From Catajapyx aquilonaris (lineage: Eukaryota), in NCBI GenBank assembly GCA_000934665.2, contig KZ538101.1, positions 1 through 64,000 of the forward strand: DNA of 64,000 nucleotides. Direction: 5' to 3'. How positions within the stretch are numbered: the first letter of the stretch is position 1; each line of letters opens with the position of its first letter. Below are positions 5,064 through 43,385 of this stretch, piece after piece. Both the position numbers and the translations under genes were made by a program. The notes beneath the pieces were generated by a model that ran no database searches, was not told the DNA's origin, and saw only the letters and a list, made by a program, of their open reading frames with translations.

Positions 5064-5294
5064 CTTTATAATTGATATATTTAAGGAGGTTGGCCCATCA
5101 TTGTCTTTCAACCTCCAAGGATAGGGAAGGAAGGAAGCGGCTGTGGCCTATTATACGGAAGCAACCCCAGAATTATCCTAGAAAGACCCTGGAAAACCAC
5201 CGAAAACCACGGTCAAGGTTGCCGGCCCCGGGATTCGAACCCAGGACCTCCCGATTAGCAGTCGGACTTATCCACTATGCCAACCTGCTTCGGT
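5064..5294 (-). mobile_element. tRNA-derived SINE, family A copy 1
   Basis: B box GGTTCGAATCC on minus strand; 12-bp TSD aacgctgtgtac (5052-5063, 5295-5306); head and body match 28590-28773. Confidence 0.88.
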
Positions 5295-6424: not shown

Positions 6425-6504
6425 GGGGGTGTAGCTCAATGGTAGAGCGTTCGCTTTGCATATGAAAGGTCCCAGATTCGATCCCCGGCACGGCGGCACC
6501 TCCA
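6425..6504 (+). pseudogene. tRNA-Ala(TGC) pseudogene
   Basis: GGGGGTGTAGCTCAATGGTAGAGCGTTCGCTTTGCATATGAAAGGTCCCAGATTCGATCCCCGGCACGGCGGCACCTCCA: Ala-type ends and anticodon, but damaged anticodon and T stems and an ~8-nt CGGCA-type duplication before the 3' acceptor strand; T-run follows. Confidence 0.8.
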
Positions 6505-11151: not shown

Positions 11152-14100
11152 GTAAGGACACCGTGCAAAAGGTTGCGTATCGAGTCTAACTTCCACTTCC
11201 TACAGTCCTGAGCCTCTTCAGTGTGACACGCTTTCCTAACAACGAGTGCGTGGGTACCGACAATCGTCATGGGGTGTGTTATACCAGCACTCAGTGCACT
11301 GCATCTGGTGGAAAGTCGGCTGGTCCTTGTGCGAAGGGAATGGGCGTGTGCTGCGTCAGTGAGTATGAAAGGGTGCATTATGGTATAGTATTTCCATCTT
11401 ACCTGACACATTGTAACTCCTGTGGTCTAATGGCAGGGCGTGGGCCTTACGTGGGCCTGAGGTCTGGGTTCGATTCCCAGCAGGGGTTAGGTGCACCTTA
11501 TCACCATCCTTTCCAGAGGCGTGTTTAAGTGTATTTCTCAAACTAACAGTTTATTTTTACAATTTCACAGTCGAGCGCAGTTGCCGAAATGTCACTACCG
11601 ATTTGGTGTCCACTTTTGTCAATCCCAATTACCCTGACAATGACACTCGCAGTAATTTGTGCGATTACCGCATTGATGTCCACGACCAGAATGTCTGTCA
11701 AATAAGGTACAGTGAAGAATTGTGTGCTAGAGCAGTTATGCCAGTGGTAGCTCATATAATATTATTATGAAAAGAGAGTGACAAATTATAAGATCGTAAT
11801 AGAATCATTCATCTTGATTGTACAACACTCAAAGACCCATACAATGGCGGCATAGTCGTGCTAAAACTTGAATTTTAGAACGAAACGAACTCACCATACA
11901 GTGAAAGGTTACGCCAACAGACCATTCCAGAAGTGATCGACTGCCAACGAAGAATTATTCTTATTGTTGTAAGAAAACAAACACAGGCCTATAGTAAGTG
12001 TACGTTTTCACTATTGCGATAGACCAAAATTGGACGAAAAATAGCACCGGAGCTTTATGCTTTTAGGCCTGTTAAACTGGCCTTTATGTGGTGCCTCAAA
12101 ATGGCGAGCTGTTTCATCTGAACCGCGATATAAACCCTCGCCGGTCAAGTCACTTTTTGCAGCATAAGGAAACCCCATTTAAGGTAGAAAAAGATAAATC
12201 GAGCACATGAAAACGTATCTTAACACTTCGCCGGTATGCACAAACCATTTTTGTTCAAAAACAGCTCGTCCGATGAAATTTTATTCGAAAGCATCTCCTC
12301 CGATGCAATATTCATCTCACCTGGCGTACTATCTCCATATTTTTATAAAAAAATTGACGATGATCGAGATGTCATCAGGTCAAAGCTTTGGACCAAGTGT
12401 CGCTTATTTGTATAATTATACAAGAGGTAAATAGGACCAGATGCCTTCTAAATAAAATAGTTCGGCCGAAGTGTTGTGATACCAATATGTATGTCATATT
12501 ACATTACATAAAGAGTAAAATGATACAATCATGATGCTAGGCCATAATTTTTCTTTCGGTCTCTCCTAGTCCGATTATGCTGCTTTTGTGAGTTACTAAT
12601 TTTCCAATCATTCATTGTGCGACTAAAGTCAGTCACAAGTAGAACTCAAATTTTAATTTGCTTCAGCTGCACAGTCATTGTACGGACCATTATAACAACT
12701 TAATTTTAGTGGATGCCCATGTCTAATTTACTTCCTTTTGAAAGGGCTTTCAAAGGGCATGTGCACATGCTCATGTGAAAAATAATTAGCATATTCTTTT
12801 TCGAGTTAATATAGTTTTTTTTCTTACACCAGTTACAAAACCATGTAAGGAGCTTCCACTTTACCAGACTCAACAGGCATTTTCTAGGATTATTACCTGA
12901 TTTTGTTAGTGCATGCTTTGTTAACGATTGCCTGCAATGTATAACCTACTAATATAAAGAGAGTTCGAAAACCAATTCTATGTGACACTTGAACACCTGC
13001 ACACTAGGCTGGATTTTGAGGAATTCTCCTTAGCTGCACCTCGCCAAGATGACCCTGATGCTGGCGACCCTTACGAATGCTTAGATGATACCCTTAAAAT
13101 AACCCCCCCACCTGTCAATGGTCTAGGATTTGAGTCTTGCTGTGGAGATATGGAAGGTCAGCATGGTAAGTACCAGTTGTCAAAGACACGGACATAAATT
13201 TCAGTATATGCAATTTATTGTTTACCCTTTGAAGTACATTATTATGCTTTTCTTGCAGTGTATGTGCCATTGGACACACATTTTGGACCAACATCACTAA
13301 CCATATTTATCACCACGGCTGCACGTTCGTCACGACATGCTTCACTAGTTCCATATCGCTGGCGTGTTCGTGTTACACAAATAAATTGTCGTGATGATCC
13401 TCACAAGGGTGAGGAACATTGTTGGTGGGAAATGAACAACAGCCACACACTACTTCTAAAATTTTTCCAGCTCCTACTGGATGTCTTCAGTATTTCACTG
13501 AGCGTGTGGGATCCTTCTTTACATTTAACTACAATGGTGGAGAGGGACCCTACCCTTCAAACCTGGACTATGCTGTTTGCATTCGCCGTTTGCCTGAGAC
13601 ATGTAGTGTGGCCTTCCGTGCTGACACTTTCTCAATGGAGGTTGTATGTAGGAGATAATGTCATTACATCACACCACTGATAAATATTTCTTCCTTGTAG
13701 ACAGCGTTGACTGTAGAGAGGGATGCCAATGAAACTGTTTCTGCATTTGGTAGTGAGCAATGTGACCATCCCAGTTCCAGCCAGGACTACTTGAGAATTG
13801 CTGAGGGCCAGTTTCAGCTTGGGGGTGCCACGGAGTCTAAGTTCTGTGGTGGTACCCTGGGCAATGAAAACAACGAGATTATTAGTAAGTGCACAGTGAA
13901 GATATTTGCTATGCATGATAATAATCAACCTTCAAGGACGAGATAATTAAATTGTAAAATACTACTCGTTCCATGTCACGTCCATTTCAGTTAGATTTTT
14001 TTTTGCACTAATCTGCATATTATTAAATAGTTACTATCAACATCCACTTTAAGTTGTCACAAATATTAGCTGCTAACATTAGGTGTAATGTGGATATGTT

Positions 14101-17934: not shown

Positions 17935-18013
17935 TTCCTCACAAGCCCTTATCAGTTCTCCGTCCAGTTGTAAAATGGACACCGGACAGGCGAATGATAA
18001 GGAAACGTGAGAA
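17935..18013 (-). ncRNA. mir-184: microRNA-184 precursor hairpin; mature 3p 17945-17966, 5p arm ~17981-18002
   Basis: Reverse complement of 17945-17966 is TGGACGGAGAACTGATAAGGGC, the invertebrate mature miR-184. It pairs with 5p arm CCTTATCATTCGCCTGTCCGGT across a short loop; basal stem ctcac/gtgag. Confidence 0.97.
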
Positions 18014-20455
18014 ATTGGGCGAAACGGTGCCTCACTGGCACGCCCGCCCTCCCCCTCCCGTCCCATCGCCCCCATACGTGTTACCGGCTGGTGTGGGTGC
18101 CTCCGGTCAGCTCCTGGACCAAGATGGCTGCGTGCAGAGGCAGGCTGGTAGGGGGCGGCCAACAGCAGGGGCTTCCTTCATCGCCTGCAAGAAAAGAGGG
18201 CCATCCCTGCCAGCTCCAAATTAAACTTGTTCGTCATTTCCCCTCCCCCCCTCTCTCCACCCCATCCCCGCCTAGTATTGATCCGCGATCGGACAACAAT
18301 GCTCAGCAGCCCTGGCGGGATATGACGGCACACTCCTTGCATCTGGCTGCAATTCGATCAATAGTCAGAGTAGCGGTCTCCTCCTCTCTCCTTCGCCGCT
18401 TTGACTCAAAGCACCCTGATGTGTGGGTGGGGGAGTATCAGACGATACATGGCCAACACCTCATCAATGCATCGGAGCGCTGCTATCTGCATAACCGCTG
18501 CCATTCCAATCAACCTCCCCCTCCCGCCACTCCAGGGCTATTAATACCCCTATTCTGCAAGTGGTTGTTCAAGCACTTCCACAATAAACTGCCCATGTGT
18601 AAATATTTATAGGAGGGATGGAACCGGGGGGGTGGGTGTAGTTGACAGGTACGGGAGCCGCGCTTATCTCGCTCCACATAGTCCGGACCCATCATTTCCC
18701 ACCCCACCAACGCATCGGCCCTATCAGCACTTCACAGACACAATGATATGGGGTGGGTGGGTGGCAAGCGCGGGAGGGTGCGGCGCACAATATAAACAAG
18801 GTTGCGGCCATGGGAAGTGGACCTAGGTCGAAAGCCTTCACCCTGGCTCGTTCTGTGCCAGACAAGCCCGAAATAACCTCGCATAAATACCTTGGGCTCT
18901 CCCTCCCTGTCTGCCTGCCTGGTATAGCCTTCCCCCTGCAGCCACACCATTACCCAAGTGGACATTGAAGAGGACCGCCAATGGCTGCAAATTAATTGCC
19001 CGGGTCCAATTAGAGATGGATATTGCAAAGCTGTCTCCGGGCATTCCCCACAATGCCGATCCGAAGGGAGGAGTGTGGAAAATGGCGGTTTTTTGGAGTC
19101 GACACCGTCCTATTAGGCTAATGAAAATGACCGCGTGCGCTACTTGCAAGTGCCACGTATGAAATGAATACAGCATGGGAGGGAGTCCCTGACCTGAAGG
19201 GAGGGGGTGATAATGCGTGATTGGGACTGGGGGGGTGGGGGGTGCNGCCCTCTTTAGCTTCAGCATGAAGTGGTGGGGCTAATCGAAGAAGGAAGGAAAC
19301 GCCAACAGCAGGAAGAGAGCGGGAGGAGGAGGAGGAGGAGGGACTGGTGGGGTGAGAGAGCTGGAAGGGCAGATGTTGGTGTCACGAGGTTGCCACCTTC
19401 CTTCATCTGCATGTGTCCCCAATGTTCCGCGCAGCTCCTTCCTTGTTGGGGGCAGACAGTCGGATGGCGGGGGAGGACTGTTACCTTGGTCCAGAGCTTT
19501 TGCTTGGTTAGAGCAGCCATGGGATGGAGGAAGGGGGAGCAGAAGGGGGATGAAATGGGATGGCATGGGATGGGCAGGGTTGCCGGATAGTCGATAGCGG
19601 GGTCGACAGCTGCAGCTGCGTGAGCTTCCACGGGACGCGCCCACTCTTTGCCAAGAGGGGAGGAGGAGGAGGAGGAGGACACCAAAGGATACGTGACTCA
19701 TGCGGGTCATGAGAGCAGATGCGGCAGAAATGGCTTTGGATGAATTAGTCTACTGTCGCGCCGTTCAAGAGTCAGTCGCCCCCCACCCTCCTGGCCGCCC
19801 CCATCCCCCACCCCCAAAAAGTGGTGAGACACGCGGCAGATGGAGGTCCCTGACAGCATGGACCCTCTCTTTCTAACTAACACCCAGATGCTCGCAGGCC
19901 TACAAACATACAGAACTTCCAGAGCCTGGCTGTGACAGCAAGCATGTCCTTGGCCGCAGGAAGTGCCTGATGGGCCCTTCATTGGGCGCAATGAAGACTC
20001 CTCTCCCCTAAATCTGGGCGCATACAAGAAGGGAGCAACCGGTCTACCCAACAATAGAACCCAAACGGTTTTGACAACCGGAGAACTGGTTTCCCCTACT
20101 GGGAGGAAATCTGCTCCTGCCGGTTACGGAACACCTCGCACCTTTCCCACCTACGTGTTGCCTAGCGGCAGGCGCAGAGTAAATAAAGGCCCCCAGGCTA
20201 TTCCGATTCCCATTCAACATACCGTGCAGTGTATGCCTCCGCTTGGAGCCTGTTTGCGTGCAGCCGGCTCTCGTTCGATGTCTGGGGTACGGTGGCCACA
20301 ACTGGAAAATAAGAGAGGAACGAGCACACCAATGAAACCCCCAAGCCATCGGGCATGGTAGCCTGATAGCCCCTTTCCCACCATCAACAGCGAAAAGGAA
20401 GAGGCTTGGGAAGGGCATGGGGGAGACCTGATTGTGTCGAGTCTAGTAATGGCAG

Positions 20456-20528
20456 TGCCCCCGCCGGGACTCGAACCCGGATCTCGGGCCTGGGGAGCCC
20501 GCGTCTTGTCCAGTTGGACCACGGGGGC
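20456..20528 (-). tRNA. Atypical tRNA or tRNA-like gene, anticodon CCC (nominal Gly), C33
   Basis: 73 nt: GCCCCCG TG GTC CAACTGGACAA GAC G CGGGC TCCCCAG GCCCG AGAT CCGGG TTCGAGT CCCGG CGGGGGC A. All stems Watson-Crick; A and B boxes intact; first T4 run about 60 nt downstream. Confidence 0.7.
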
Positions 20529-21822
20529 GCTCGTGTGTCAGGGCGACGGGTGGGTGGAATTCAAGCCTGCTCTTCCATCATCTTCGCTGTCCCACCCAGC
20601 TAATCAAAAAGGCAAGCAACGAAAGGATGCTCTGTACTTACGCAGTTTCAGCCGGCGTGTGTCGCACCGCAGGAGCTGGCTGGCCTCGCATCTCCGGGCC
20701 TGCAATCCATAATGAGCATTAAAGTGACATTATGGGCTGGCTGGCTGTGTGCGCGACCTTTGCTTCGTCGATAGGCACGTCCGATAGGGAATGTGGAGAA
20801 GGTTTATCAGTGGTGACGACATGCTAGGAAAGGAAAGGGCACACCGGAGTATGGAAGTGAATAGGGCTCACCGACGGTGCGGAGCGGATGCCGATCCTCG
20901 CTCCCGTCGGTCCAGACCGACAATGTTGCACTGTGGCCAAAAAATGCCAAGTCACCCTCTCGACCCTGCGGCGACCCCTCCCCTAGCCCCTCCCTCCCTC
21001 CCTCCTACCCTCCCCACCCCCGACCCTGGAGGGAGCCCCCAAGAGAACGTCGCTCCCACCCGGAGTCTGAGCACTTGTAGTCCCGGACACCCTGTAGCAA
21101 AGTTTCATGAGGGTATGGGGGGTGGCAGAGCGCTGCGCAGGGGGAAGTGCGCCCGGCACAGACACCGCCTCCCTTCCCGCCTCCCCCTGAACCCCACCCC
21201 AACCCATCCCACTCCCACACCCACATCCACCGCCCATACCCTCCCCCCACCACACCCCCCCGTGCATGTCCCACCAAATTCCAAGGCTCACTTTTTTCCT
21301 TTACTCCCTCCCCCTACTCCCTCCCTCCCCCGCCACCATCGCTCCTCAATCAGGATGAAAAATGCTAAGGAGGAGAAAGAAACATACACACCCACCCACA
21401 CACGCACGCACGCACGCCAGTGTACCACTCGGCCGTGTGCTGCAGTTTACGATACCACACACTACAAACACAGACAACGCACATTGAAGTGTACCTTTTC
21501 CGTACAGTCAGTCAGTGCAGGGAAGCTCACTTATTCGCACAGCCCGCCCTCACAGCGCGCCGAAGACACCGAGCCAGCAGTCCTTCCCTGCTTGGGCCGC
21601 TGCCAGTGCTGCAGTGACTGCAGTCTGCAGTGGCCGGCTACCACCACCTGACCCGTGCAAATGGCGGACGTGCTTATCGATTGGACTCGCCTCGCCACGC
21701 ACAGTTGCCAAATGGCAAGCAAATGCACAACCGCGCGCCTTTTCAATTTATTCATACCCCCCTCCCCCCACCCGCCCTCCCTAACTACCTACCTACCAGG
21801 GGAGAGGGGGGGTCCATCTACT

Positions 21823-21837
21823 CTAGTAGATGGCGCT
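21823..21837 (+). promoter_or_regulatory. CTCF-like motif
   Basis: CTAGTAGATGGCGCT, one mismatch to the CCASYAGRKGGCRS core, inside the largest GC island. Confidence 0.45.
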
Positions 21838-22590
21838 GAAACCCCCACTTCCGGCCGCGTCATATCCCGCCACCCACCCTGCTCACAAGCCAAAGCAGAC
21901 AGTCGGCCACGGCCTGCCTTCCTCCCTTTTATATCCCAAGCGCGAGAATGAGCCGTGTCGCCATAGCAACCACCACGATTATCATGCGGTGCTTACGCTT
22001 ATCCCCCTCCTTCCCCCACCCTATTCGCCCCCCCTTTGCCAAGCAAGGTTGCCAAATGGAACCTGATTTGGCAACGTGGTCGCCATGGCAACATCCTCAT
22101 TAGAAGACGTGGAGTAGGAGGACAGGGCCCAAGAAGAGATGACTACTATCTCCACGGGCCATACCATCCTTCCTCACTTCCTCCACCTACTTCTGCTCCA
22201 ATTTTGAGGGGCAGGTCTGCAGGGAGGGAGGATAGTGGGTGGTAGGGAGGCCCGGCAACACCCCATCTCATTCCTTTTGTGCAGCCAGCCTCCCCATGCA
22301 ACATTGAGGAGGACAGGGGCGCTGCCTAATGCCCGCCCGCCATCATGCTGGCCATTCCCATTCATTTCATGCGTGATCAGATGTCGCAATTGAGCTTCCT
22401 CCTCCCCCTTACCTCCGAATAAAAGTGATCCTCCCCCGGAATCAAGTGCAAGTTTCATGAGATGGCGACGGCCACCAGGAGTTGTGTGCGCGGCCCAACA
22501 TCCCCCCCGCCTCCCCCCAGCAGATGGGCCGACCAACAGGTCACGGGATACATACAACTGCAGTTACAAAGAGAGAAGAAAGGGGGGGGG

Positions 22591-28551: not shown

Positions 28552-28775
28552 TTTATTTTTTACCCCGTTGCTTCATACATGGATGGGGCCAAGGATATAG
28601 TGAAGGAAGGAAGCGCCTGTAGCCTATTATACGGAAGCGACCCCGGAATTATCCTGGGAGGACCGTGGGAAACCACAGAAAACCACGGTTAGGATCGACG
28701 GCCCCGGAAATCGAACCCAGGACCTCCCGATAAGCAGTCGGACTCCTTAACCACTACACCAACCTGCTTCGATTA
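28552..28775 (-). mobile_element. tRNA-derived SINE, family A copy 2
   Basis: Same head and body as 5117-5294; A-rich tail; 9-bp TSD taattgctt (28543-28551, 28776-28784). Confidence 0.85.
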
Positions 28776-43227: not shown

Positions 43228-43385
43228 CAAGGGGGTAACCACTTCGGAACTCAGGTGTACACCTGCGAGTGGTACTCCTTGGTAGCCCCAGGTACTCCTT
43301 AGGTACCTTACTCTTTGGTACTCCTTGGTACTCCTTGAATTTGGTACTCCAGCGTACACTTTACAGTCGAATGGTTAACCCCTTG
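43228..43385. mobile_element. Short CAAGG-TIR MITE with 8-bp TSD (P- or hAT-type, copy 2)
   Basis: caagggggtaacca...tggttaaccccttg flanked by direct repeat gagagaac (43220-43227, 43386-43393); internal ggtactcctt tandem units. Confidence 0.85.

Follow-up and report, generated by a model that had tools for sequence, protein, structure and literature searches.

The movement of anticodons from one tRNA isotype to another is documented in eukaryotes (Rogers and Griffiths-Jones 2014, PMC3923123). According to Westhof et al. (2022, PMC9023262), C33 is normal only in initiator tRNA-Met, and other departures from the conserved positions "most likely correspond to pseudogenes". A mutation of base 33 "markedly degrades translational efficiency", and the U33C allele of yeast tRNA-Gln(CUG) has a phenotype, yet is usable (PMC3664417). 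In Candida, Ser-tRNA(CAG) is a tRNA of hybrid identity; its G33 serves as an anti-determinant, which may have reduced toxicity (PMC1991585). Furthermore, RNase P cleavage has a precedent at the tRNA-like element of MALAT1, a non-coding transcript (PMC8457004, PMC4824109).

The locus described here is a tRNA-type gene of Catajapyx aquilonaris with the anticodon CCC and with C33. It lies in a window of 64,000 nucleotides (the whole stretch of DNA that was analysed) and comprises the following features:

20456..20528, minus strand: tRNA-type gene of 73 nt with an Arg-like body, anticodon CCC, C33, a 4-nt variable loop and A73 (Rfam, ARAGORN, parse and pair list)
20490..20496, minus strand: anticodon loop U32 C33 C34 C35 C36 A37 G38 (Rfam alignment and parse)
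20510..20521, minus strand: A-box region TGGTCCAACTGG, tRNA positions 8-19 (sequence reading)
20467..20477, minus strand: B box GGTTCGAGTCC, linear tRNA positions 52-62 (regular-expression match to the consensus)
20393..20396, minus strand: first T4 run 3' of the tRNA, 60-63 nt past A73 (sequence reading)

Rfam model RF00005 matched the gene at 20528-20456 (minus strand) with 53.6 bits against a gathering score of 29, over model positions 1-71, i.e., in full (E-value 1e-8 in the 64-kb window, 9.6e-10 in a 6-kb local scan). ARAGORN called a tRNA-Gly(ccc) at 20455-20528, one base more than the Rfam span, so that the 73-nt cloverleaf proposed in a preliminary description of this DNA stands. From the acceptor to the anticodon arm the molecule parses as GCCCCCG UG GUCC AACUGGACA AGAC G CGGGC UCCCCAG GCCCG, and after the anticodon arm as AGAU CCGGG UUCGAGU CCCGG CGGGGGC A. 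Twenty of the 21 pairs of the cloverleaf are Watson-Crick (19 G:C and one U:A), the sole exception being C13·A22. The statement that every stem is Watson-Crick is therefore right for a D stem of 3 bp, as the preliminary description had notated it, but not for one of 4 bp, where C13·A22 is not a Watson-Crick pair. G18, G19, U54, U55 and C56 are all present. The determinants named in the preliminary description for Arg (A20, C35) and for Gly (C2:G71, C35, C36, A73) can all be read directly in the sequence, A20 with one extra base in the D loop, and its reading of the loop as U32-C33-CCC-A-G, i.e., without U33, agrees with the Rfam alignment and the parse. The B box, for which the consensus is GGTTCGANTCC, is intact as had been claimed, and the A-box region is present.

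Up to the region of the 3' splice site of the intron described below, the T4 run at 20393..20396 is the sole candidate terminator for Pol III, and 60 nt is far for a tRNA gene. The idea of a retro-copy was rejected: no CCA directly follows A73, and any direct repeat flanking the tRNA does not exceed chance (278 of 500 shuffles were as good), i.e., no target-site duplication was found.

Several other tRNA-like sequences occur in the window. A tRNA-derived SINE-like repeat is present in two copies (5115-5292 and 28589-28771, both on the minus strand; 85% alike over 183 nt), each of which starts with a degenerate, D-arm-poor tRNA-like head called Ser(gct) by ARAGORN; the first copy scored 29.9 bits with Rfam. 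The tRNA-like sequence at 11415-11489 (plus strand; 47.1 bits, ARAGORN Arg(acg)) is the sole copy of its kind in the window and has a 9-nt loop, two bases over the model in the anticodon region and imperfect acceptor pairing. At 6429-6491 (plus strand) a partial match spans model positions 5-66 (34.6 bits), but several of its pairs are broken; short repeats of its flanks occur elsewhere in the window, e.g., at 43309-43383. No Pfam family was found in 20 of the 57 stop-to-stop ORFs of at least 110 aa, and the window therefore appears as a gene desert around mir-184.

The isotype of the body was assessed by a hand count of matched columns against the aligned human and silkworm tRNAs for Arg, Gly and Thr published in the supplement of PMC9023262, and by the stem motifs given for human, mouse and silkworm in Table 1 of the same paper (Westhof et al. 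2022). In this hand count, 53 of 74 columns matched human Arg-CCU and 52 of 74 silkworm Arg-CCU, followed by human intron-less Arg-UCU (49/75), human Gly-CCC (46/73), silkworm Gly-CCC (45/73) and human Thr-AGU (44/74). The T arm CCGGG-UUCGAGU-CCCGG is identical to that of human and mouse Arg-UCU. The Arg motifs of the acceptor (G.CC..G) and T stems (..GGG) fit, that of the D stem (GC.Y) is matched at 3 of 4 and that of the anticodon stem (YYKGM) at 4 of 5 positions. The D loop is Arg-like and of the A20 type; the variable loop has 4 nt versus 5 nt in Arg, and a 4-nt variable loop is a trait of Gly, Glu, Gln and Asp, as well as His, rather than of Arg (PMC9023262). On the Gly(CCC) side, the gene shares the anticodon CCC, C2:G71, A73 and the 4-nt variable loop (PMC3923123, PMC9023262), A73 with C2:G71 being named for Gly in the former paper. 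The Gly motifs of the D (GU.C), anticodon (...GC) and T stems (CCGGG) fit, and 4 of 7 positions agree with the acceptor motif GCRYUGG. The gene lacks the U13oU22 signature of Gly-CCC, since position 13:22 is C·A, and C13·A22 is a published trait of Arg-ACG.

The body is therefore best described, from such motifs and from a hand count against three distant reference species, as Arg-type by a modest margin with some Gly-like features. The preliminary description had given an Arg-CCT layout, which turned out to be the human Arg-CCU sequence of the supplement, and had denied a resemblance to animal tRNA-Gly(CCC); the first part is carried by the counts (52-53/74 for Arg-CCU versus 45-46/73 for Gly-CCC), but the 4-nt variable loop and the D, anticodon and T motifs do fit Gly. 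The stem differences from human Arg-CCU are two-sided at 6:67, 11:24, 28:42, 49:65 and 50:64 and thus compensatory, as had been noted. The conclusion drawn from them at that time, that the structure is under selection but not for normal decoding, does not follow: compensatory changes relative to another phylum show constraint in the lineage, not selection on this copy. ArgRS requires C35 with U36 or G36, plus A20. The anticodon CCC, having C36, departs from the anticodon part of this requirement.

A canonical elongator tRNA has a 7-nt anticodon loop with U33, which makes the U-turn, and a purine at position 37. Here A37 is present and position 33 is C, and a C33 that comes without a low score and without other mutations is unusual. 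The predicted folding is a further irregularity. The nearest-neighbour minimum free energy fold of the tRNA is not the cloverleaf (-40.7 versus -33.8 kcal/mol, a gap of 6.9); the canonical D stem has an ensemble probability of about 0, because GUCC (10-13) pairs with GGAC (18-20a) in a rival hairpin, and the anticodon and T stems have about 0.4. Against shuffled sequences the fold has z = -2.41, 6 of 200 shuffles being equally stable. As nearest-neighbour models ignore tertiary contacts and modifications, this result calls for caution and does not refute a tRNA. The tRNA is probably a poor decoder, given its C33, the hairpin that competes with the D stem and the distance to the terminator.

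Copy number was estimated from contigs of public runs of the same organism, placed on 19288-21477 at 80% likeness. The DNA runs X1, X2 and X4 come from one sample, from which the window itself may derive, and X5 from a different sample of the same organism. X1, X2 and X4 agree: one contig spans the tRNA locus, and five more (1.2-8.8 kb) match inside the tRNA only, with no alignment to its flanks. Word depth in X1 is 17-31 for these five contigs versus 21 for the locus contig, i.e., single-copy-like. Since contigs show presence and not absence, the figure of about six loci is a minimum. No second copy of the element was found within the 64-kb window.

One of the paralogues covers 20455-20523 (69 nt) with 12 mismatches; it begins with GCUUU versus GCCCC at the locus and, in an ungapped alignment, has G36, U37, A38 and U40. 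In the other four the match is confined to 32-35 nt at the 3' end, from 20455/7/8 to 20487/9 (3' anticodon-stem strand, variable loop, T arm and 3' acceptor strand), with 1-3 mismatches. One of these four reads in sense ...AAGACGCGGGCU-AGGCCUUAUGGCCAGU-CCGAGAU... in a 30-letter loose contig end (X1, X2 and X4). Its 3' D strand, G26, 5' anticodon strand and U32 are identical to those of the locus tRNA, and U32 is followed by 8 extra bases, giving a closed hairpin GGCC-UUAU-GGCC with a 4-nt loop, and then by G39-U40, with G30·U40. The other three stop matching exactly at the 38/39 boundary, and upstream of it they differ from one another (agreement 0.53); our guess is that such a picture would arise from different introns at the canonical 37/38 site. 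One paralogue has TTTT 5 nt past its end, versus 60 nt to the first T4 at the locus. With the paralogue loops read from 30-letter loose contig ends, all three readable anticodon loops (the locus and two paralogues) are non-canonical, and the 3' half of the family is nearly constant.

No relatives were found in metagenome scans: the 30-mer of the 3' half had no match there, and the D-arm 19-mer occurred at six loci, of which only L002 and L004 are tRNA-like, with bodies otherwise unrelated to the Catajapyx tRNA. These two (L002 240-313, plus strand; L004 352-425, minus strand) are near-identical tRNA-like genes of 33.5 bits without an ARAGORN call, which have the 19-base D-arm string in common with the locus tRNA and a 9-nt anticodon loop ACACUCAAU on an unrelated body; they look prokaryotic or viral, because a start codon lies about 25 nt downstream. 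A 19-mer from the 3' end of the tRNA did not occur in a full-text literature search.

The tRNA lies upstream of mir-184 on the same strand (minus), with 2441 nt between them, as described before, and in addition probably falls within the same spliced transcription unit according to X5. The kind of this run is not on record (share 0.17); five contigs with a likeness of 99% or more were obtained from it, with joints at 20301/20642 (340 nt skipped) and 20698/20871 (172 nt skipped), both CT..AC on the plus strand. The first of these joints comes from a 60-nt contig with 30 letters per side, at the detection limit. Junctions of this type would be absent from DNA, and X5 therefore behaves like an assembled transcriptome. 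The resulting map is as follows:

20700..20871, minus strand: intron of 172 nt, GT-AG, GTGAGC...TTGCAG (joint 20698/20871, cut +1, X5 contig 24)
20642..20699, minus strand: exon upstream of the tRNA intron, about 57-58 nt (X5 contigs 22 and 24)
20302..20641, minus strand: tRNA-holding intron of 340 nt, GT-AG, GTAAGT...polypyrimidine CAG (TCTCTTATTTTCCAG) (X5 joint 20301/20642)
20223..20301, minus strand: exon downstream of the tRNA intron (X5 contigs 20, 21 and 22)
18185..20222, minus strand: intron of 2038 nt, GT-AG, GTATGT...TTGCAG (TTTTCTTGCAG) (loose end of X5 contig 20)
18154..18184, minus strand: start of the next exon, of which the 5' part is seen, 170 nt upstream of the mir-184 hairpin (overhang of X5 contig 20 and splice site)
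17935..18014, minus strand: mir-184 precursor hairpin (Rfam RF00657, 68.4 bits, E-value 8.7e-13)

The long intron is supported by X5 contig 20, which ends at 20222 and has a 30-letter overhang matching 18154-18183 exactly (0 of 100 shuffles); from the exon at 18154..18184 the spliced transcript would continue to the mir-184 hairpin. The window contains 272 N, one of them at about 19247 within this 2-kb intron. The tRNA lies in sense in the second intron seen, starting 113 nt past its 5' splice site and ending 154 nt before its 3' splice site. Furthermore, one contig of X5, at 20487-20671, spans the 5' splice site without interruption, from the upstream exon to 42 nt inside the tRNA, and therefore an unspliced precursor with cloverleaf sequence exists. 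Its stop at the multi-locus 3' half is a graph break and not an RNA end; X5 has no cover at 20378-20486 (the tRNA's 3' half plus the 78 nt of trailer next to it), as its contigs break at the repeated 3' half, and this gap is given no weight. The block at 18000-22000, which holds the 5' exons of the host, has 57-59% GC versus about 42% elsewhere, with G-runs and low-complexity tracts of the GGGA/GGGT type; with a CpG observed/expected ratio of 0.62 versus 0.70 in the rest, it does not qualify as a CpG island. Transcription by Pol III from the tRNA through to mir-184 was considered and rejected, since six runs of T4 or longer intervene and Pol III would not reach the hairpin. A literature search for an intronic tRNA in the mir-184 host gene found nothing relevant among the matches listed. 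New here is the exon-intron structure of the spliced host transcript of mir-184, where the tRNA occupies the second intron seen; it makes the idea of tRNA processing from this transcript directly testable.

We give roughly an even chance to the interpretation that the gene is a decoding-impaired, anticodon-shifted paralogue of an Arg-type tRNA family that has lost U33 and came to lie in the pri-mir-184 intron by chance. As a nuclear gene of tRNA type, it would belong to a small, lineage-specific family that has a CCU/UCU-like Arg body; its anticodon would have moved from the AGG/AGA box to GGG (CCU to CCC, at position 36) while U33 was lost. Its RNA, made by Pol III or excised from the host intron, might be trimmed by RNase P and RNase Z and receive CCA; C35, C36, C2:G71 and A73 would favour glycylation, if the RNA is charged at all, and the reading of GGG would be poor, since the U-turn is spoilt by C33 and the rival hairpin is the preferred fold of the D region. 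The sense placement in the intron of pri-mir-184 is most likely incidental. This interpretation is supported by the genuine tRNA architecture, the body nearer to Arg, the small family and the unique flanks, and also by the aberrant loops of the visible paralogues, the literature on C33, the far T4, the gap in folding energy and the lack of a duplication. Against it stands that there is no decay outside the loop, although an old neutral pseudogene should carry stem mismatches. Moreover, the 3' half is 1-3 bases away from four other loci while the loop is very different, for which simple neutral drift from those copies is no explanation. Finally, the variable loop and the D, anticodon and T motifs fit Gly, and the margin in favour of Arg is modest and comes from the hand count against three distant species. 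If the gene is only an impaired paralogue, it would illustrate that one anticodon base (CCU to CCC) moves a tRNA gene between codon boxes, and that such copies persist with intact structure.

Because the stems are clean, the 3' half is near-identical at four loci and the paralogue loops are odd, rival explanations stay alive. By analogy with Candida, the gene could encode a selected, functional tRNA of hybrid identity, in which an Arg body with a Gly anticodon reads GGG, is charged with Gly or ambiguously with Arg, and has its decoding or mischarging attenuated by C33 as by the Candida G33; we regard this as unlikely. The perfect stems, the intact boxes and the Gly determinants C2:G71, C35, C36 and A73 (A73 and C2:G71 being those named in PMC3923123) would suit such a tRNA, and so would the isotype shifts documented in that paper, the lowering of leucylation and possibly of toxicity by G33 in Candida tRNA-Ser(CAG) (PMC1991585) and the viability of yeast with a U33C allele of an essential single-copy tRNA (PMC3664417), but the terminator is distant, the rival hairpin in the D region is favoured, and the C33-CCC loop was seen at a single locus among the contigs compared.

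A broader version of this idea, which appears rather unlikely, would take the whole family into account: the about six loci would form a lineage-specific family on an Arg scaffold with near-identical 3' halves and non-canonical loops (C33-CCC, an 8-base hairpin insertion, U37), and the member at this locus would be a selected hybrid-identity RNA, either a GGG reader attenuated by C33, in analogy to the Candida G33, or a cloverleaf excised by RNase P and RNase Z that couples a small RNA to mir-184. Should the RNA prove to be expressed and conserved, animals would have their own equivalent of the Candida G33 hybrid tRNA or, alternatively, a conserved microRNA transcript would for the first time be linked to a tRNA-like processing element. 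Either outcome, if true, would have implications for the way in which tRNAs of mismatched identity are tolerated or exploited by cells.

Taken by itself, a processing signal analogous to mascRNA is quite improbable. RNase P and RNase Z would then cut the cloverleaf from pri-mir-184, free a tRNA-like RNA, sever the capped upstream exons from the part with the hairpin and thereby tune mir-184. The position of the tRNA in sense in intron 2 of a spliced minus-strand transcript, the precursor RNA reaching 42 nt into the tRNA (20487-20671) and the RNase P precedent at MALAT1 (PMC8457004, PMC4824109) are consistent with such a signal. However, the tRNA, 2.4 kb away from the hairpin, is part of an intron that splicing removes, a sense orientation has a prior of 50%, the five paralogues elsewhere have unrelated flanks, and the standard 5-bp anticodon stem, 7-nt loop and full Pol III boxes are unlike mascRNA. 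In addition, many tRNA genes sit in introns.

Very improbable is a TFIIIC/Pol III boundary or chromatin element in the GC-rich, promoter-proximal region of pri-mir-184, acting via the A and B boxes and not as RNA; the intact B box, the A-box region and the location in the block of 57-59% GC at 18-22 kb (5' part of the host transcript) would fit without being specific to it, and TFIIIC binding does not require that all stems pair perfectly. The head of an ordinary tRNA-derived SINE, an option raised in the preliminary description, is close to refuted and was rejected: such SINEs do exist in the genome (5115-5292, 28589-28771), but in contigs from the organism's DNA runs the likeness does not extend beyond the tRNA, the flanks are unique, only five other loci with partial paralogues of single-copy-like depth were found, none of them in the window, and there is neither a target-site duplication nor a common downstream body, which is incompatible with the hundreds of copies sharing such a body that would mark an ordinary SINE.

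In a comparison with described systems, the gene shares with animal Arg(CCU)/(UCU) the acceptor G.CC..G, the D loop AA(C)UGGA(C)A with A20 and the T loop UUCGAGU. It differs from these tRNAs in CCC, C33, U32, G38, the 4-nt instead of 5-nt variable loop, the extra D-loop base, U11:A24 and the nearly all-G:C stems. With animal Gly(CCC) it shares the anticodon, C2:G71, A73, the 4-nt variable loop and the D (GU.C), anticodon (...GC) and T (CCGGG) motifs, but it has a longer, Arg-like D loop, the T loop UUCGAGU instead of UUCGAUU, C33, the acceptor GCCCCCG rather than GCRYUGG, and no U13oU22. C33 is natural in initiator tRNA-Met (PMC9023262), whereas the gene studied here has CCC instead of CAU, G1:C72 instead of A1:U72, U54 (no A54·A58) and an ordinary UUCGAGU.

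In the nematode nev-tRNA-Gly(CCC) (PMC3333845) the anticodon CCC likewise sits on the body of another isotype; the nev-tRNAs, however, belong to class II, have a long variable arm and carry Leu, so that the class I tRNA described here, with its 4-nt variable loop, does not belong to them. The mascRNA/MALAT1 element (PMC8457004, PMC4824109) is similar in being a sense cloverleaf in a Pol II non-coding transcript and a potential substrate of RNase P and RNase Z, and the Catajapyx tRNA is indeed in sense within a Pol II transcript (intron 20302-20641). However, mascRNA sits at the 3' end of a lncRNA and has neither a normal anticodon arm nor the features of a Pol III gene, whereas the sequence here is intronic and looks like a complete tRNA gene. 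Candida tRNA-Ser(CAG) (PMC1991585) offers the parallel of a hybrid identity with a base other than U33 that lowers recognition and decoding, but it is a fungal, expressed and proven decoder of class II with G33, and the present tRNA has C33 and is known from its sequence. A further parallel is offered by the anticodon-shifted eukaryotic tRNAs (Rogers and Griffiths-Jones 2014, PMC3923123), which combine the body of one isotype with the anticodon of another; CCU and CCC are one base apart, at position 36. The shifts in that work were defined by syntenic orthologues, whereas the tRNA here is known from one locus and has C33 in addition. Anticodon-shifted or otherwise aberrant copies of tRNA genes are a known kind, of which this tRNA is a further case.
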